A stretch of DNA of 63,283 bases, filler included, from Bigelowiella natans CCMP2755 (GCA_000320545.1; 4 parts of 4 records of this genome joined end to end with filler, not necessarily neighbours in it); one strand, 5' to 3'. Shown: positions 4,716 through 51,687, numbered from the whole stretch's first letter. The notes: generated by a model from the letters alone, not told the origin. Translations and numbers: made by a program.

Positions 4716-5721
4716 GTCATCGCCATTAAGTTATCATGATTATTACCTGCTGCTGAGGCTGGTTTGGCTGGTGCTATTGAACCTGTTGGCTTTGGTGCCG
4801 GAGCTGAAGGGGGAGGCCCCCCTCCTAGCTCAGCCATGAAACTTGCATACTCATCGTTGAGAGCGGGTAGCCGAGTCGCATTCCTGTTGAAGTGAGAGGG
4901 GGGGGGAATGAAAGTACCCCAGCATTAATAATGGCGGACTCTAACTATTTTTTTCGCTTCGAGAGTCGGGATTTTTAGAGACATAATGTAACTTTCATTG
5001 TGATAAAACTCGGACTTCTTCGTCAATATTCTCAAACAGCAAAGAGATAATTTGTGGGGGTTGAACTACGTGATATTAAATTTATAAATATGTATTATAA
5101 TATATATATATAAACACATATGCACATTTTTTATGAATATACCCTTTGTTCGGACAGTCAATAGTGGGGTGTGTGTCCAGGCCGCAGATCGCGCATTTCA
5201 CATCAGCTGCACTCCATGATGATACACGCTTAGGGCACTACACAGTAGCAAACACGTAGCAGAGAAGAAGATACAATGATCAGATGATCATGAGATGGAC
5301 GACAATGACAATCATAATCTCATTTTTACCCACTGAAACGCACATACGTTACTTACTAATGCAGCAACATTAATGTCTGCTCATAGGTTTTATTGAAATA
5401 TCCAAAAAAAGAATGCTACTATTACACTACTACTGCTGCTACCTCTTGAATCTTGTGGCCTTCTTCCCCACAGATGCGACACTTCGGTACCTCTCTGAGC
5501 GTACCGTTGATCAACGCCAGCTCTCGCAACTGCTTGGCTTTATGTACGTTTTGCGTTTCCTAAAGAAGACAAGTAACACTTCTATAAGAAATCGTTCTTC
5601 AATATGTCTATGATATAAAATTCCGGACACTGTGCCCCACGAGAGAAAATTGGTTACTTTGCCATGCAACACGATGAGCTTGTCTATTTCGTCCAAACAC
5701 ATCGATGTATCATGTGTTCGT

Positions 5722-5764
<43 letters not shown>

Positions 5765-6867
5765 CACTTACGTCCATAGGGATCAGAAGTTTGTTAATCA
5801 TCGCCTCGGCCTTAGCAAGTTTTTCCTCATCAGGGGCGATGATATGCACATGTAGCGGCTGGTCTTCGTCGGGCTGTGACCTCCCCTTCTTGCTGGAACC
5901 TTTCCCCCTGATCGATATCTTACAGCCTGTCTCTCGCTCCATACGCTTCTGCGTGTTACCTCGAGGACCAATGATCAACCCAATGAAGTTGTAGTCAGGA
6001 TACTTGTCGACAGGAATGTCGATCTTCTTGATTTTCTTCGCTGGTGCGAACCCAGGAGCGAATGCCTTGAGCGCAGGATTTTCAGCAATGGCCTTTTCCA
6101 GCAGTGTCTGCCTTTCCTCCATCAGCTTGTCCTTGAATCGCTTGTCGCGTGTATTGACTCGCTGATAACATCAATAAGGAAAATAGCAATAGAATCAGGG
6201 AATCGTGACGACAGTTGATGTATTAAAATTATTGACAATTTCGAGTGAATTTTTTCTGGCTGCTTCTACCAATCCCGGCCCTCCTCAATGATATACGATT
6301 GATTATACCTGGCCGTCGGCTGAATAGATCGGAGGCGGGGAAGGCCCCAAATCTGCTGATTCGATGAATGCGGCAGGGTTCATGAGTTTCGTGTTTATTT
6401 GCTCTAGCTTCAACCGAAAAAGATAGATGTCCACTTGCTGCAGTGTAAGATCCTTGGTTGCGAAGGCAGCACCAGGCGGTAATATCATCTGGAATACCAA
6501 CATTGTAGGATAGGCAGAGAGGGGGGAGGAGAAATCAGAGCTGTTGTCAAATATATCACAGCTAATCCTGCATCTCCGAAAACTTGTAGAAGATTGATTC
6601 GTTCTCATAAAAATGTAAAAAAGTGCCATAAATTTCTATATTGAGAATAATGAAACCTTATCCTTATGAGAGCCCCATCTGGACTTCTTGCGGCGCGAAC
6701 CAGGGAGAGCCTCACCCCACCTAGTCTTTTTCTTTCGCCGTCTCCCTCCTGGTATACATAGTAAACGTTCAATTCGATGAAAGGAGAACAACATGTAAGA
6801 GCAAGACAGGACCTTCCGGTTGTTTAGAGTCCGGATTGGTGCTCGGTGTGTTGGCCTCCTGGCTCAT
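3470..6867 (-). CDS. SF1: Splicing factor 1 / branchpoint-bridging protein (multi-exon)
   Basis: ULM RRKKSRW (~6680-6700), [16 protein letters not shown]2 domain ([36 protein letters not shown]; [13 protein letters not shown]), two zinc knuckles ([18 protein letters not shown]), [12 protein letters not shown], and a Pro-rich C-terminus ending at TAG 3470. Confidence 0.93.
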
Positions 6868-38619: not shown

Positions 38620-40323
38620 ATGCGGAAGCTCGGCCTCTTTGCCTATCTTGTGGCCGCATGCCACCTGCTCGCACTCGTCGATGGCGGCACCTCCTCGTCC
38701 CACAAGAGAAAGGTCGGATTTAGCGACTATTGTGTCATCGGGGCCGGACCTGCCGGGATTCAGATGGCGCATTTCTTGCAGAAGGCGTCGCTGAACTACA
38801 TCGTCTTCGAGAGGGACTGGGGGCCAGCTAGCACCTTCCGAAAGTACCCAAGGCACGGGAGATTGATCTCTATCAACAAGCGCTACACCGGCAGAAATAG
38901 CTCGGAATCGAAGGCCAACCGAGAATATAACCTCCGACACGATTGGCACTCCTTCCTCACCGCCACTGAACCCGTCGAGAGAGAGCGCGGTAGCGATAGC
39001 AGCGAGACGCCTGATGGCGGGGGGGCATTTGATGATCACGCCGACGACGACGGTGACGAGATTCTTAGCTTTAGCGGGTTTTCAGAGAGGTATTTTCCAC
39101 TCTCCGAGGAATATATCGCCTACGTGGCAGCGTTCATACGACAGACGAAGCCCAGAATCAGATTCGGGCGGAATGTCGTTGACGTCTCGCATGTCAAGAG
39201 AAACCATTCCGCCAACGCTCGCTTCTCCTCCCCAGACGGTGATGATAGACAGCTATACCACTTTCAGCTAAGAGTGCAACAGCAGGCAAGGCTGCAGGAG
39301 AATGTAAAGAAAAACGATAAGAACGCACAAGCGCAAAACGCAGAGCAGCCACCAAATGAATCACCTAGCAAGCCAAAACAACGGCAAACTCGATGGTTTT
39401 GCAAGCGGCTCCTAGTCGCCAGCGGGATGCAGAAGGAAACAGTCCCGTGGTGGGACGGTGTGGAGCTCACCACTACATACGGCACACACGACACTGACCC
39501 AACGACCTACCGCAACAAGAGCGTTGCCGTGGTAGGAGGCGGAAATTCGGCTTTCGAAATCATCAAATCGATCATGGGGGAGGCTGCCAGCATCCATCAG
39601 TATGTGCATGTAGCGATTTAGTGAGAACGATAGGTCAAGCAGACTTTGATCCTGCGGCGTTTTTGCCATTTCGTGAGAGTGGATGTTTCTGCTTGGGTCA
39701 GAGGCCCACTTTCACGTCCACTGTCATGCTTTGAGTGATGGTGATTTCTCATTTACATGCTCTGCCTTCTTCAACTTTCTGCCCTCCTCGTCATTTGGAG
39801 TATACTTGACTTTCTCTCTCTCGCTCTCCCTCTCCCTTCTCCCCCCTCCCCTCCCCCCCCCCCCCCCGGTCCAAGATATGCGCGGCACAAAACTACAGCT
39901 GAGGAATCACATTATCCCGGCGCGTTGCGCTCCGCGAATTCTGCAGCACTTGACAACGAGCCCGTGCTGAGAACACAGGATAAGTTCTTCCAGCACCCTT
40001 TCCCCCTCCGGAACATTCGAATCCGAGAGGAGCAATACCGAGGCGAGCGGAAAGTTTGCATACTTCCCTCTGACGACGGAGCCCTCGTCTCCGCCCCCAA
40101 GCAAGCACTGAACAGCTCGTGGGAGGGTGAGGTGGAGGGGGGGGGCGATTGGCTTTTCAGTGCGGCGGCGCGTGAGTCGCGCCGACCTCGATATTGCTAC
40201 GATTATGTTATTCGATGCCTTGGTTTCTCCTTCGATCCCTCGGTTATGGGGAGATTGGGAAGGAAGCTAAATTTCCAGAGGCAAAACGGCATTCCAAAGT
40301 GCTACTGATGTTTATATTTGTAT

Positions 40324-44590: not shown

Positions 44591-44690
44591 NNNNNNNNNN
44601 NNNNNNNNNNNNNNNNNNNNNNNNNNNNNNNNNNTTAATTAATTAANNNNNNNNNNNNNNNNNNNNNNNNNNNNNNNNNNNNNNNNNNNN
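44591..44690. other. Assembly spacer/gap
   Basis: N44-TTAATTAATTAA-N44. Confidence 0.97.
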
Positions 44691-44692
44691 AT

Positions 44693-45700
44693 CTACATTT
44701 TTTTATCTCCTTGCCTATTACTTGTAGCACTTGACCTTAATTCTTTCGCAACACTATCAATTTCTTTATCTCTAACAGATTTATCCACCTCTGCTCCTAA
44801 ACTTGCTTCTATTGTATTTGTCAAATCTATTGTAGGAATACTTACATTATATTTGCTCTTTAAATCATTGTAAAGGTCTCTTCCTGCCTGTGGGGTTTTA
44901 GGGGCATTCAACATCTTGCTACTCCCTTCAATGACGATTTTCAGTTCCTCGTCAGACTTATTTTTATTGCCTAATATGATGACACTTAGGTTCAATATCT
45001 TGAAGAAGACCATTAACTTTGATTTAGGAAAACTCTTAGCAGTCACTCTAAGTTGTTTGCCCCCAACATTACGAGTGAATGTTTTGTTCCCTTCAAAATG
45101 ATACTTCATCACTGATGCGATAAATTTAGCATATTTAACAACATCATCTTTTTTAATCGTGTTGTATTCCTTTTTTAATTGGGAATAAGCATTTCGTAAG
45201 TAGGTTAATTTTATCTCACTATAATCACCTTCCTCAAATAAATCAACGACTTGGTTAAGCATCTTTACATAAACACTCTCGCCTTTGAAGATGCTTTCCT
45301 TTTCAGTAGCAGGTTTCTCTTCATCTTCTTTCACCACAGATAAACCCTGTTTAAGAGCATCCCTTTCAGCAAAAAACTGCCTCTTATTTTCAAGCATATT
45401 TTTGAAAATGTTGTTGTAGTACCTACCTGAACCTCTTTTAGTAGTAGCATAAGCACTATTGCTATCAATAGGCATCGCCGAATGTAAAGATTGGATGTGT
45501 AATCTGTTGAATGCTCCTGTTGGTGTATCCGGAGGAAGGATATTGGGTAGTGATTTACCATTTATGTATTCATTCATTTTCTTCTTATTGTAATCAATAG
45601 ACTGCTTTGCCCTCTGTAAGATGAATCTTCGTGTGTTATCAAAGAAGGGGATTCGTCTTTTCTCGTCGTGTCCTTTTATCATAGCATTATTTTTTTTCAT
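44693..45700 (-). CDS. Virophage hypothetical protein (335 aa)
   Basis: Intact intronless Lys-rich ORF preceded by the TCTA-N13-ATG motif. Confidence 0.75.
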   Translation of the reverse strand: MKKNNAMIKGHDEKRRIPFFDNTRRFILQRAKQSIDYNKKKMNEYINGKSLPNILPPDTPTGAFNRLHIQSLHSAMPIDSNSAYATTKRGSGRYYNNIFKNMLENKRQFFAERDALKQGLSVVKEDEEKPATEKESIFKGESVYVKMLNQVVDLFEEGDYSEIKLTYLRNAYSQLKKEYNTIKKDDVVKYAKFIASVMKYHFEGNKTFTRNVGGKQLRVTAKSFPKSKLMVFFKILNLSVIILGNKNKSDEELKIVIEGSSKMLNAPKTPQAGRDLYNDLKSKYNVSIPTIDLTNTIEASLGAEVDKSVRDKEIDSVAKELRSSATSNRQGDKKM

Positions 45701-45720
45701 ATATATATATGTTTAGATAA

Positions 45721-46284
45721 TTATTTATTTAAAATTTCATTTGTATATAAAACACTCAATTCTAATGAATTGATACAGGTTTTATTTTTTATATGTTTTA
45801 AAATCCTATCAAACTCTTTGAGGTTGTATTTTGAAAAAGCGAACCTTAAGAGAACCCATCTTCCGCAGGTAGCATTGCTTTTATCGGTCCTGTTTTGGTA
45901 TATTTTCTTATTAAATATAGGTTTGTATCCGCTTTTCTTAATGAGGTTTAACAACACATCAGGCGAGACATTCATTTGGGAGTTTAGGTGCTTGTTAATA
46001 TTCTTAAAAGGAAATCCATAACTATCAAAAATTTCTATCGTGTGCTGTTTCCGTATTAAACCCAACCAGTGTCCTGAATTCTCCTCATTCAACCACAACA
46101 AGACACCGATATTACCATTGAATAGTTGGTCGGCAAATCGCAATTTCGGTAAGTCGGCAGATGTAGTTATCCTGATGTTAGGGTGAGCATTTGTTAAATC
46201 ATAATTGGAAAGAGGGTAGGATTTTAGACTGCTGACAAGGTTGTCTAAACTTTTATGGAAATCTACATTCTTACATAAATTCAT
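45721..46284 (-). CDS. Virophage maturation cysteine protease (adenain/Ulp1-like clan CE)
   Basis: Catalytic H (SGHWLGL), D (EIFDSYG), oxyanion Q (IYQ) and C (ATCGRW) in adenain order; 187 aa. Confidence 0.9.
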   Translation of the reverse strand: MNLCKNVDFHKSLDNLVSSLKSYPLSNYDLTNAHPNIRITTSADLPKLRFADQLFNGNIGVLLWLNEENSGHWLGLIRKQHTIEIFDSYGFPFKNINKHLNSQMNVSPDVLLNLIKKSGYKPIFNKKIYQNRTDKSNATCGRWVLLRFAFSKYNLKEFDRILKHIKNKTCINSLELSVLYTNEILNK

Positions 46285-46291
46285 ATATATA

Positions 46292-47059
46292 TTATTTGAG
46301 ATTTATAATTTTAGAGATAATCTTTTTGTATTTACACTTACATTTCTTTTTCTTTTTACATCCGCCTTCTACATAGTCGTTCCGTAATATCGTTGGGTTT
46401 CCATCCTCGTAATTATATAGTTTCCTAAAAGCAGGTTGGTCTAAACTGTGTGCTTTTATCATTGTCGGTGTAGGGTCTACTCTTCTTTTTATCCAATTAA
46501 AGAAACCTCTAACTTGCTCAGGATTGTATTTCAACACCTTCAACCTATCATATCTGTATCCGTTGTTAAGTCTATATAAAAAGTCTTTGTTTATGTATAT
46601 TCTCTTCACCTTATCGTTATTCTGTATCTTTATGTCTTGGGGTTGAGATGCTCCATTGAAGGTTGTAGCATATTTAATAAAAGGATACCTCCTTATAAAT
46701 TCATTCACTATCGCTCCACCCAAAGAATGACCTGTTATGAAATACAGATATTGATTGGGTTTATATTGCTTTATTATTTCGTCCATTCTCTTTATGTCAG
46801 TTTTAAATCTATTACTTGCTTGTAGATTGTTCCAAGCAATCTTGTAATCCGCATACAAATCACCCATACTTGTAGGTACAGTGCCTCTAATTGTTATTAA
46901 TATGACTTTGAGTTTCTCGTCTATATATACATCAAAAGTATCACTATCATATTTTAATTTTAGGTTTTCGTTTATGTCTGTAGGTGTTTGTTGATAGGAA
47001 TTCACAGAACCTATGTAATAATCTTTCTCATCAATGACATCTTTAAATTTTTTCACCAT
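46292..47059 (-). CDS. Alpha/beta hydrolase, lipase class 3-like
   Basis: ILITIRGT lid motif, ITGHSLGG nucleophile elbow, TTFN, KDFL, and C-terminal His (AHSL). Confidence 0.88.
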   Translation of the reverse strand: MVKKFKDVIDEKDYYIGSVNSYQQTPTDINENLKLKYDSDTFDVYIDEKLKVILITIRGTVPTSMGDLYADYKIAWNNLQASNRFKTDIKRMDEIIKQYKPNQYLYFITGHSLGGAIVNEFIRRYPFIKYATTFNGASQPQDIKIQNNDKVKRIYINKDFLYRLNNGYRYDRLKVLKYNPEQVRGFFNWIKRRVDPTPTMIKAHSLDQPAFRKLYNYEDGNPTILRNDYVEGGCKKKKKCKCKYKKIISKIINLK

Positions 47060-47121
47060 ATTAATTATTATATAGAAAATTTTATTGAGAAAAAATAATA
47101 TCTAATGATTTATATATATAT

Positions 47122-47770
47122 ATGTCACAGAATGCTGATAAATCACGAGCATCAGAGTTAGGATTACACTATGCTAAGAACATTATGGAAATGGATGACG
47201 AAGTTAAACAACTAAAGAATTTAATGGGTGCTGGATTTTGGAAAGACTTTCACAAAGGTTTTAAGCAGGGGTTTTCAATACCGATGAAAGTGGGTAAAAA
47301 ATTACTACCTGAGATAGCAGATGTCCTGGATGTAGCGAATGAAGTCGTCCAAGCATCTGGAGTAAAACACAAAAAGAAGAAGAAGAAAAAGATTAATGTG
47401 AAGGCACTCATTCAAAAAGTCAAAGGAAAAGGATACCACTATGGAGGTGCTGACAACAATAAAGACGATTGGGTAGTGGTAGACAAACCTCCAAAAGAAC
47501 TATTTCAGTGGGTAGAAAGCAACAAAGAATTTAAGAAAAGGATAATGGATAGGGTAAATAAAAAGTTGAAAAGTAGCAAAGGGAATAAGAAAAAGCAATA
47601 TCATCCAATGTGATAAAGGATTGAAGATTGTTAAGTCCAGGGTCAAATCCACAAATCCAAACGACAGAAGAAAACGAAGGGGTGCTTTGATTAAAAAATT
47701 GATGAAAGATAAGGGACTGAAGTTTATTGAAGCATCACAATACATAAAAAAAAACAATTTAAAATATTAA
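47122..47770 (+). CDS. Basic virion core-like protein split by a +1 frameshift (ORF 47122-47613 plus frame 47570-47770)
   Basis: The first frame has Gly motifs (LMGAGF, HYGGA) and a poly-Lys run. The +1 frame is open from 47570 to TAA 47770 and ends RRKRRGALIKKLMKDKGLKFIEASQYIKKNNLKY, which I recall as a conserved virophage C-terminal motif. Confidence 0.65.
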
Positions 47771-47778
47771 AAAAATTA

Positions 47779-47782
47779 TCTA
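47779..47782 (+). promoter_or_regulatory. Putative viral late promoter core TCTA (example copy, 13 nt before the penton ATG)
   Basis: TCT[A/C] in AT-rich context also occurs at 45714-45717(-), 46298-46301(-), 47073-47076(-) and 49099-49102(+), all 13 nt from the ATG, and at 47101-47104(+), 17 nt from the ATG. Confidence 0.75.
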
Positions 47783-47795
47783 AATTTTATTAATA

Positions 47796-49085
47796 ATGAA
47801 TAGTTATGTATTTGCTATGAACAATTTTAACAAGGAGCATCAAGACCACCTTTATTACAATTTGGATATTGTGAATAACGAGACCATAGACAGCAATAAG
47901 GATAATCCTGTGGTAAGTTATACAGACACCCTATCAAAGGCATTATTAGACGATGTCAGCAGTTGGTATTTCTCAATCATTCGGTTTCAATTAAATGGTG
48001 TAGGTAGAGAAATCCCTATATTCATACCTGAAATTGAGCGAGACCAGACCGATGCGAATAAGACCATTTACAAGATTACTCTGTTCTACCACTTTATTCA
48101 AAATGGGATACACCACAAAAAGTCTCAGACCGAAACTGTCTATTTTGAAACCCAGAACAAAAACACCAGTCCACCCACAACTGTAGGGAAGCAGATGGAT
48201 TTATCTACTAATTATTACTATGTCTCTACCTATAGTCATATAGCACACTTGATAAATAAAACTCTCAAACGATGTCACGAGAACCTGATTGCTAAATGTA
48301 AAGCAGAAGTACCAGGTCTTCTTTCTGATGAAATAACACATTTAGACAATCTCAAAGCACCTATACTTTATTATGAAGAAAGTTCGCAGTTATTTAAACT
48401 TTATTTAGACAAGGATATACACGGAAAGAAAAACAACAGGTTCAACAATACCATTTTTGATGTGAAAGGTAGATTGTTTTTTAACAGCAACCTCTTCTTA
48501 CTCTTCAGCAATTTTCATCACAACTATATTGGAGGCGACCTTAGAAACACTATAGAATATAACAGAGGCACGATTACTGATATAGTAGAAAATATGTCTA
48601 TACCAGGATGTGCCTACGATATTCTACCAATTGAGGATGATTTAGACATTCATTCACTCACCAAAGGAAATAAAACATATAGTATTTTATCCCAAGACTA
48701 TGAGAGTGTGAGCAGTTTATGGTGTCCAGTCAGTGCGATTGTATTTACTACCAATATCATTCCCATTGAGAGTGAAATCACAGGAACACCTTTAGAATTC
48801 GTAGACAAACAGCAAGTAAGCGATAGTAGGCAAGATACCTCCCAAAAGGTTATTAGTGATATGACAGTAGGTATTAGTAGTGCCGATGATTACAGCGGAA
48901 CGATTACCTATGTCCCAAGCGGTGAATACAGATATATTAACTTTACCTCTGCGAACATCCCCTTAAAAAGTATACAGATTTCGGCATTTTGGAAGCATCG
49001 GTTGACAGGTGATTTAGTCCCTATACGAATGCCTAACAAAAGTAGCATCCATCTAAAACTAATGTTTCAACGAAAGCAAAAATAG
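47796..49085 (+). CDS. Virophage minor capsid (penton) protein
   Basis: DHLYYNLDIVN, YFSIIRFQL..IPIFIP, QDYESVSSLWCPVSAIVFTTNIIPI, YVPSGEYRYI, FWKHRLTGDL and KLMFQRK are typical virophage mCP motifs. Lies directly upstream of MCP. Confidence 0.88.
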   Translation: MNSYVFAMNNFNKEHQDHLYYNLDIVNNETIDSNKDNPVVSYTDTLSKALLDDVSSWYFSIIRFQLNGVGREIPIFIPEIERDQTDANKTIYKITLFYHFIQNGIHHKKSQTETVYFETQNKNTSPPTTVGKQMDLSTNYYYVSTYSHIAHLINKTLKRCHENLIAKCKAEVPGLLSDEITHLDNLKAPILYYEESSQLFKLYLDKDIHGKKNNRFNNTIFDVKGRLFFNSNLFLLFSNFHHNYIGGDLRNTIEYNRGTITDIVENMSIPGCAYDILPIEDDLDIHSLTKGNKTYSILSQDYESVSSLWCPVSAIVFTTNIIPIESEITGTPLEFVDKQQVSDSRQDTSQKVISDMTVGISSADDYSGTITYVPSGEYRYINFTSANIPLKSIQISAFWKHRLTGDLVPIRMPNKSSIHLKLMFQRKQK

Positions 49086-49115
49086 TTTAAATTTTTTTTC
49101 TCGGTGTAATTATAT

Positions 49116-49758
49116 ATGAATTTAAGTAAGAAAGCAGTTTATGATGCTAGAACAGTTCAGTTACCACCTGAATACAAAATCTCTAAGAGTTCTATGTCAG
49201 TGAATAACAAACAGATTAAATCTTTATCCGCAAGTGCGAGTAATCAAAACTATAACATTACCATACCTTCTTTAAATGTCTTCGTTGACCGAAAGATAAA
49301 CTGGACCTCCGAGGTCACCCTTTTAGTCACCTTAAATAGAGGTGATTTTAAGACTACTGTTGATTTTGGTGTGGATGGAAACCCTGCTGCCGGTGCTAAA
49401 ATCGCAACCTTAAGTGAAATCTTATCCTTAAACAACTTCCCTTTACACAGAATGGTTTCCACAATGAGTTTACAAATCAACGATACAGTATCTACGACCA
49501 ATTTAGACCAATCCATTAACGAGCAGTTGCTTCTAATGACTACTGACCCAAAATATGATAGTAGCAGTGCGATTTGCCCTTCCTATTTATCACCTTATGG
49601 AAAATATAGCGAAGGCAAAGGAGCATTCAATAATAGTATTACTGGGTTCTTTGACGGCGATAAATTCTACCACAAGAATGGAGCACATTTTGATGTGAAC
49701 TTTGTAGATGAAAATGGCAATGTTTTAGCGGACAACTTTAATGGAAATGTGAACATAG
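49116..49758 (+). CDS. Virophage major capsid protein, N-terminal part (truncated by gap)
   Basis: SASNQNYNITIPSLNVFVDRKINW and FPLHRMVSTMSLQIND match the N-terminal motifs of Sputnik/YSLV-type MCPs. Follows the penton gene. Confidence 0.85.
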
Positions 49759-49858
49759 NNNNNNNNNNNNNNNNNNNNNNNNNNNNNNNNNNNNNNNNNN
49801 NNTTAATTAATTAANNNNNNNNNNNNNNNNNNNNNNNNNNNNNNNNNNNNNNNNNNNN
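49759..49858. other. Assembly spacer/gap
   Basis: N44-TTAATTAATTAA-N44. Confidence 0.97.
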
Positions 49859-49903: not shown

Positions 49904-51687
49904 GGAGGAGGAGGAGGGGTTAGAGCTGCGAGCACATGAGGGAGGTGCAATCCCTTCAAGATTGCAGAATCCTCCTCCTCCTCCTCCTTCTTCGTCTGGA
50001 TGAACCGCAGTGCTGCGATGGTGCTGCTTCTGATCACCGTAATGGCCGTGCGGGGTGATGGCGTCCAAACCGCCTAATAGAGGTTAGGAAATGTAACATC
50101 TATTAGAGAAAATGGGGATAGTCAGAAGAAGAAAAAGAAGAAGGAGGAGAAGGAGAAAGAAGAAAGAAAGAAAAACAAGAGTAACGTGAATCATGTACGG
50201 GCACTACGGTGCGCTGTTGCGCGCGTGCGCATGTGTATGCGTCAGTCAATCTCATCTATGTGCAGACGTAAACGTCGCGAACAATCCTTCCCAGCACCAC
50301 TCAATTTCGACACGTTATCTGCTGCAGAAGCATGCCCGCCTCCCTTCAGCATTACCAACGCCGTCGCCATCTTTGGCAAGCTGGGATGATGGCGCTTCTT
50401 CGTTGATGAGGCACTCTCGGAGCTGCTGATGATGCTCGGCTTCCTGCTGGCGATGTTGAGTCTCGTGCTGCCCCGAAAGGCGTTCTGACCACCAGACGAC
50501 TATCAAAACATAGCCGCCATACACGACGAGGAGAGCCAATGCTTCCCAGAGGTATATGGTGCCATCGACCGAAATCGCGAGGATTGCCGTCGTTGCGACG
50601 AAGTAGGCGATCAAGTCCCGGGAAAATGACTTGGAGCTCACTTCGACGTGCGATATTGTCTGCGACTGAGGAAGATGGTGACAATAAGAATCGTGTAGCT
50701 CTGGGACCTCTTCTCTTCCTTCTTTGGACTCTTTATCATCGCCGTTTTCCCCCTCCAGCTGTTGTGATTTGAGGAGTACCATTTCAGTAGTAATGTGGAT
50801 GCTTTCCCCTCCAATGCTAATTGCTTTCGGCTTTAAGCTCTTCCTCTTGCTCCCTTCGCTTCCCTTTTCGAGTGATTACAAGTGATGTTTGCGAGTGTGC
50901 GTCATGAACTCTAATGTGCACGCACAGGATTCTGCTAAATAGAAGCATCGATGCATGTGTTGTAGCGAGTGAGAGAGAGAAGGGGAGGAAGGGAGGAAAT
51001 GAAATCGTTAGGTATTCATAAGTTCGTTAATTCCTACCCTTTCTGTCGTACTAGGTAAGATTCCACCCACTTCATCACCATATTCTTCTTCCTTACTCTC
51101 CAGAGGCTGGTACTGAGAGCCTGCCCCTCGTTGTGATGATGATGGCCTCTGTTGTTGTCCCGCGCTCAGCAATACGGCCCCCAACACAACGGTGCTAATG
51201 AATGTCGAGGCACCCAATAGGGATCCGACTGCCAATCCGAAGTCGTTCGCCCCAGATATACCTGCAAGCGCGGTGAATACATCGGGGGCGCCATTCCCTA
51301 ATGCTAGTAGTGTGATCCCAGCCACCTTTTTTGTTAGAGGTATTTATCCGAATGTTTCGGCATCATTCAGTAATGGAAAACAAAATAATGAAAGATGTGG
51401 AAATCACAATTTAATACGATGGGTACCTCGGGTCGGAGGCGGAGATACTCGCTCATCCACTCCAGCTGCGGGACGAAATGGCGCTCCGCGGTGCTTGCAA
51501 GGAGACTGATCAGAAGAAACCCCCATGGGATGTATGCGCACAGCAATGAAATTCGCTCAATCCCTCCATGGGCATTGTCATATGCGAAAGCGTATGGAAG
51601 AAGGTTGGCTTCAGACATTACCCTCTCTTCGAACGCAGAGGGGTTCCCGTTTGATTTGGGTTTTGAGTCACAATTATTTTGGGTCAA
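49904..51687 (-). CDS. Cation/Ca2+ exchanger (CCX/NCLX family), 5' part
   Basis: LASTAERHFVPQLEWMSEYLRL, alpha-1 repeat AGITLLALGNGAPDVF, GSLLGASTFISTVVLG, FSRDLIAYFVA, and GTIYLWEALALLVVYGGYV. Truncated by the gap. Confidence 0.88.

Follow-up and report, generated by a model that had tools for sequence, protein, structure and literature searches.

Which transcription machinery would read the genes of a virophage fragment carried in the genome of the alga Bigelowiella natans? The fragment occupies positions 44691-49758 of a 63,283-nucleotide (nt) stretch of DNA from strain CCMP2755 (GCA_000320545.1), which we call the window, and each of its six genes is preceded by eight A/T residues (W8), the triplet TCT and, after a spacer of nine nucleotides (N9), a T. 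We consider W8-TCT-N9-TA very probably to be a late promoter, and we think it likely that the six copies are read by a co-infecting giant virus related to CroV (Cafeteria roenbergensis virus), such as ChlorV.

A fixed arrangement ahead of six virophage genes

An earlier note on this DNA had placed TCT[A/C] 13 nt ahead of the ATG of five genes, namely those of a 335-amino-acid (aa) open reading frame (ORF), a protease, a hydrolase, the penton and the major capsid protein (MCP), and TCTA 17 nt ahead of the ATG of the sixth, ORF163. All of these positions proved correct on recount, with the sixth TCTA at 47101-04 and its ATG at 47122, and the sixth gene additionally fits the W8-TCT-N9-T register. 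The motif thus spans -17 to -14 in five of the six window genes, and W8-TCT is present in all six promoters, as TCTA in four and as TCTC in two. Among the 177 ATGs of the contig that have 50 nt of upstream sequence, five carry TCT[AC] at 13 nt and all five are ORF starts; ten W8-TCT sites exist on the two strands of the contig, and six of them are gene promoters.

The placement of the motif is non-random, and on this point the earlier note held up against shuffled controls. When the six 50-nt upstream regions were shuffled 20,000 times by mononucleotide and 20,000 times by dinucleotide, a C- or G-containing 3-mer never recurred at one offset in five of the six regions (0/20,000 for either kind), and when AT-only 3-mers were allowed, 1.1-1.2% of shuffles reached 5/6. 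Outside the contig the 13-nt spacing is not enriched, with 35 occurrences in the whole window including these five, versus 13-31 at other spacings. The features of the fragment are as follows.

44691..49758, no strand: virophage fragment, a separate contig (GC content and spacers)
44693..45700, minus: 335-aa ORF, family none found (Pfam and Atlas searches gave no lead)
45701..45725, minus: likely late promoter W8-TCT-N9-TATA-T-ATG, TCTA 45717-45714, its W8 overlapping the protease stop codon
45721..46284, minus: virophage maturation cysteine protease, 187 aa, H72/D87/C140 (homology, alignment)
46285..46309, minus: likely late promoter, TCTC 46301-46298, inside the final codons of the hydrolase gene
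46292..47059, minus: alpha/beta hydrolase, lipase-like, GHSLGG, 255 aa, with relatives in 41 virophage loci
47060..47084, minus: likely late promoter, with TCTA at 47076-47073, a T at offset 9 and its TA at offset 10, standing back to back with that of ORF163
47093..47121, plus: likely late promoter of ORF163, TCTA 47101-04, N9 register, leader 4 nt longer
47122..47613, plus: 163-aa ORF, its N-terminal part conserved ahead of the penton in L158, L159 and L175, which are the closest relatives
47771..47795, plus: likely late promoter serving the penton gene, with TCTA at 47779-82 (motif)
47796..49085, plus: virophage minor capsid protein (penton), 429 aa (PF21507; identity to jgi/Bigna1/144262)
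49091..49115, plus: likely late promoter serving the MCP gene, with TCTC at 49099-102 (motif)
49116..49758, plus: virophage MCP, truncated at the contig end after its first 214 aa (PF21915)

The constant feature is TCT-N9-T and not the distance to the ATG: all six promoters follow W8-TCT-N9-T, with TA at that point in five. The ORF163 promoter keeps the N9 register, and its extra bases fall within the downstream TA run. The earlier note had suggested that this (TA)n run may have expanded. Its length does vary, other copies being 4 nt longer in three of the four DNA runs compared; a 4-nt-shorter form is not listed among the copies in these runs. The same rule appears in giant-virus loci, where the distance from TCT to TA is constant while the gap to the ATG ranges from 10 to 29 nt; here and below, promoter counts for giant viruses are among the matches listed. 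We suggest that the AT run and TCT would form the factor-binding half of the promoter and that the TA run about 10 nt downstream would serve as initiator, giving mRNA leaders of only a few bases; such a minimal leader would explain the fixed 13 nt.

The fixed distance to the ATG in five genes might also be expected if the motif were no promoter but a branch point, a splice acceptor or a signal for translation, and TCTAA does resemble a branch-point core. We regard this as barely plausible, given that an AG lies between motif and ATG in none of the six cases and that the downstream TA of giant viruses tracks TCT and not the ATG.

Likeness to known late promoters

Passages of PMC11464507 and PMC11998528 give the Megamimivirinae late consensus, for mimivirus, Sputnik and Zamilon, as W8 T[AC]T N4 W5 R TA[TG]A. 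The window promoters have the same bipartite build of eight A/T, TCT and a downstream TA, but the Megamimivirinae spacer is one base longer (TA at offset 10). With at most one mismatch allowed, none of the six matches the consensus at its published spacing; with an altered spacer, five of six match at one base longer and three of six at one base shorter.

A second likeness is to CroV, whose late promoter, according to parts of PMC8547959, PMC10945749 and PMC5294985, has copies in mavirus and in type 4 endogenous mavirus-like elements (EMALEs). In Cafeteria, only the EMALE type bearing the CroV motif is reported to be reactivated by CroV, and induction requires late-phase virus. Here, as there, an AT-flanked TCTA core stands directly before the start codon, and a promoter of this kind precedes all genes seen in an element that is, here probably, integrated in a protist genome. 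In contrast, mavirus and the EMALEs belong to another host and another virophage lineage, and two of the six window promoters carry TCTC. The earlier note had taken these genes to be built for the late machinery of a giant virus. The resemblance to the Megamimivirinae consensus and to the TCTA of CroV and ChlorV, together with the late-type genes that follow the motif in giant-virus loci, supports that view of the build; transcription by such machinery is a prediction.

Promoters of virophages and giant viruses at large

To place the motif more broadly, we drew on 187 virophage loci found by alignment-based searches (scanning viral_contigs and the phage collection with single proteins gave no matches; the alignments succeeded) and on at least 356 giant-virus loci from pattern scans. 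Across the 754 upstream regions that 81 dereplicated virophage loci provided, an excess of TCT is found 10-21 nt ahead of the ATG (359 seen versus 168 expected), and the enriched TCT is followed by a TATA-like element. Among 140 distinct upstream regions of giant-virus capsid genes, 112 have W8-TCT, 12 TGT, 5 TAT and 11 none. At the 112 W8-TCT sites the fourth base is T in 53, A in 33, C in 21 and G in 5, and TA[TGC]A lies at offset 10 in 79, compared with 18 at offset 9. W8-TCT is present in named genomes of at least IM_01, IM_09, IM_16 and AG_04.

The motif that the earlier note proposed to look for ahead of giant-virus late genes is common before capsid genes, where the gap to the ATG is 13 in only 3 regions. 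The proposal that TCTA or TCTC is a fingerprint of the helper was overstated: an A or C follows in 54 of the 112 capsid sites, and TCT[A/C] alone is a weak and non-diagnostic indicator because W8-TCT is spread across several giant-virus families and distant virophages. In a wider form, W8-T[CGA]T-N9/10-TATA stands before 129 of the 140 capsid genes, in Mesomimiviridae, IM_09, Mimiviridae and Algavirales-type loci (L188-L323), which suggests that one late promoter may be common to these groups. TCT and a downstream AGA or ATA also make a spaced inverted pair in the giant-virus capsid upstream regions.

The 13-nt spacing is not kept in L158 and L159, the closest relatives with DNA (38-40% identity), where TCT lies within 30 nt of just one of three penton and capsid starts, and among 77 virophage loci with at least five ORFs, in no other does a single spacing account for more than one-third of the ORFs. 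Of the virophage loci examined, the one whose promoters most resemble those of the fragment is L091 (GC 0.29), which has W8-TCTA before 7 of 11 ORFs in a mixed 9/10 register.

Spacer length and the candidate helper

If TCT is too widespread to be diagnostic, the length of the spacer appears more telling as an indicator of the helper. In the window, TA lies at offset 9 versus 10 in 5 versus 1 of the 6 promoters, and in other virophages in 12 versus 73 of 108 sites (86 loci). For giant viruses, the register was scored in 122 loci with a capsid gene of at least 300 aa, taken from 138 dereplicated loci of at least 4 kb, and the capsid genes themselves were excluded. A clade of 37 low-GC loci (the N9 clade) has 80 versus 27 of 116 sites, and the remaining 85 loci have 9 versus 40 of 65. 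The contrast survives when the remaining loci are restricted to those with GC<=0.30 (1 versus 21 of 30) and when only ATG gaps of at least 12 are counted (50 versus 12 in the N9 clade, 8 versus 34 in the remaining loci). Within the N9 clade, the motif stands before the capsid gene and before a conserved gene of 284-288 aa, but not before VLTF3. Four named tips of this clade and two further named loci belong to the IM_16 Mimiviridae genera g222 or g224. In the genus numbering, as found in part of PMC8575486, CroV is g225, PacV g226-227, Hokovirus (the first klosneuvirus seen) g228 and mimivirus g246.

A giant virus of the same host species is already described. ChlorV-1 to -4, of the Aliimimivirinae, infect B. 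natans strains and group with CroV and XW01, and a MEME prediction puts their late TCTA peak ‘around -14’ (passages of PMC13196603 and of the preprint 10.1101/2025.11.19.688996, the latter in its Fig. S6 legend). This coincides with the end of the window motif at -14. The passages of PMC13196603 available to us hold no comparison with provirophage promoters and no reactivation test, and our search found no literature linking ChlorV to these promoters, although most subscription papers, Blanc 2015 included, lay beyond it. The literature drawn on also includes PMC12085832, 10.1101/068312, 10.64898/2026.07.28.741278 and 10.1101/2025.10.09.676808. The helper, which the earlier note called unknown, need not be so, as with ChlorV a candidate for this host has been published. 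By analogy with CroV and the EMALEs that bear its motif, a ChlorV-type virus is our best guess. We find it fairly probable that the helper lies within the CroV/ChlorV group; that ChlorV itself can reactivate some copy is quite possible, if on balance somewhat doubtful.

Several observations weigh against this assignment. On the side of the window, four of the five TA-at-9 cases lie within (TA)n runs and so reveal only parity (9 or 11), and the hydrolase promoter is an exception with its TA at 10. On the side of the giant viruses, the commonest ATG gap of the N9 clade is 10 and not 13, its fourth base is C in 5 of 116 sites versus 2 of 6 in the window, and two trees give it FastTree support values of 0.87 and 0.60. 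The clade was sampled through a seed locus picked for its likeness to the window promoters, its pattern-scan loci are the matches listed, and the register sites are not phylogenetically independent. That the N9 clade groups with CroV we infer from consecutive genus numbers only. CroV, mavirus and ChlorV were likened to the window by description and not by register, and the ‘around -14’ of ChlorV is taken from a figure legend. Sputnik and Zamilon, moreover, carry the late motif in only about half of their genes (parts of PMC11464507 and PMC11998528). Finally, the sole raw-read RNA run offers 55 reads with no pile of ends from which transcription starts could be mapped.

Some of these points would fit a generic late promoter of Megaviricetes type that holds no helper information, in which case the 9-nt register would reflect drift or (TA)n parity and helpers from several families would be possible. 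Such an account draws on the spread of W8-TCT across IM_01, IM_09, IM_16 and AG_04, on the ambiguity of (TA)n runs, and on the presence of N9 ahead of the capsid genes in a group with several capsids, the named members of which are IM_09. We nevertheless consider it unlikely, given that the register contrast survives both the low-GC controls and the long ATG gaps, that N9 occurs in only 12 of 108 virophage sites, and that a CroV-related virus of the same host is known.

RNA from the element

It could be argued that expression no longer needs a helper, with host RNA polymerase II or one of the element's own factors reading the motif. According to review passages (PMC6723459, PMC13196603), B. 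natans provirophage genes are transcribed without a known virus, and RNA contigs in run X15 span 28 of 30 bins of the fragment. The nature of this RNA, however, argues against host use of the motif. Three metatranscriptome runs were compared as contigs (same year, habitat and library type, and possibly one campaign), and at least 17 distinct joints were listed, with one of the two comparisons covering 45560-47950 only. These joints are found in RNA and absent from the DNA-run listings, and their median length is 165 nt. Of the 17 listed, 13 read as GT-AG when taken on the minus strand, and on the plus strand none do; the splicing extends on one strand across 44969-49548, antisense to the penton and capsid genes. 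In at least one RNA run each promoter is skipped along with its ATG, which is not statistically significant, as the listed pieces make up 52% of the contig and are AT-rich. In the one six-exon spliced chain that was tested, every one of the three frames contains stops.

We therefore regard expression driven by the host or by the element's own factor as a very unlikely explanation of the motif. The minus-strand spliced RNA is probably read-through by host polymerase II, or possibly a silencing transcript; the removal of promoters by splicing likewise suggests that basal expression is probably host read-through. The strand of the X21 raw reads was considered and not used: first mates fall mostly on one strand over the full length of the contig, and the usual reading of this opposes the splicing, but the library chemistry is unsure.

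Returning to the CroV-related helper, we propose that in the uninfected alga the promoters would stand idle while host read-through RNA crosses the element and is cut up by the spliceosome, and that upon infection a viral late factor would activate the six genes jointly, in the way that CroV acts on integrated mavirus. In its most extended form, this proposal holds that W8-TCT-spacer-TA is a single late promoter of Imitervirales and Algavirales, that a spacer of 9 or 10 is a lineage code which virophages must match, that B. natans provirophages carry the CroV-group 9 and are woken by ChlorV, and that virus-free expression is spliced read-through. We offer this combination only tentatively.

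Identity and gene content of the fragment

The earlier note treated the motif as an argument for a true virophage, but membership rests on the homologies of capsid, penton and protease, which we judge to be virophage-type. The MCP, from its N-terminal 214 aa, matches PF21915 with an E value of 5e-28 (98 bits against a cut-off of 27), and the penton matches PF21507 (1.7e-17) and Sputnik 3j26_N (2e-12). The protease has tblastn matches in 123 of 187 virophage loci, and its H72/D87/C140 are kept in at least 99% of 73 aligned sequences; comparison with the PDB gave only chance-level matches. The names given to these three genes earlier are accordingly upheld by Pfam or alignment, but the ‘lipase’ is less secure, as all lipase-type Pfam matches of the hydrolase fall below the Pfam cut-offs.

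The virophage contig (5068 bp, GC 0.34), which is cut at both ends, differs from its flanking contigs (GC 0.45-0.47). The window is a concatenation of four contigs joined by artificial 100-nt spacers (22769-22868, 44591-44690 and 49759-49858), and neighbourhoods across these are meaningless. Spacers of the form N44-TTAATTAATTAA-N44 flank the virophage contig on both sides (44591-44690 and 49759-49858), so its neighbours are unrelated contigs. A host-DNA junction was looked for and none is visible in the window; what was seen were spliced RNA and, in DNA runs, many variant copies and loose ends. The penton matches without any difference a protein that bears the label jgi/Bigna1/144262, where we take Bigna1 to denote Bigelowiella natans, and because of this identity the fragment is almost certainly one of the known provirophages of this alga. 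The genome of B. natans has 38 virophage-like elements, the majority transcribed, according to review passages in PMC6723459 and PMC13196603. A comparison of four DNA runs with the fragment revealed numerous variant copies and ends running into other sequence, which fits a multi-copy integrated family. Loose ends common to DNA and RNA runs at 47097 and 45917 show copies continuing into other sequence, and gene order thus differs between copies.

At 47593, other copies of ORF163 are about 238 nt longer than the one in the window. The region 47593-47745 resembles the 3' remnant of a small basic gene, and the end of ORF163 may be a deletion artefact. We discounted an early-type AAAATTGA at 47695 as a promoter, as it sits within apparent coding remnant. 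No strong 3' hairpins were found near the stop codons in a search made without a shuffle control. The host contigs of the window carry a remnant of a retrotransposon RNase H/integrase (20549-22369), a flavin oxidoreductase gene (38620-39621), a KH-domain exon (5721-6122) and an exon resembling a Na/Ca exchanger (50315-50782).

Significance

Both this kind of promoter and the element itself are already known. What is likely to be new is that this family carries the motif, along with the spacer contrast, the match to ChlorV and the spliced antisense RNA. The contrast in spacer length would provide a sharper rule for predicting helpers than the mere presence of TCTA, and the spliced minus-strand RNA suggests that provirophages described as ‘transcribed’ need not be making viral proteins. 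The question of a helper for the Bigelowiella provirophages, which dates from 2015, gains a cultured candidate in ChlorV (isolated 2025-26), and the extension of inducible virophage defence from Cafeteria to a rhizarian alga is now directly testable. If it is true that ChlorV wakes the provirophages of B. natans, this would be a second inducible virophage defence system.

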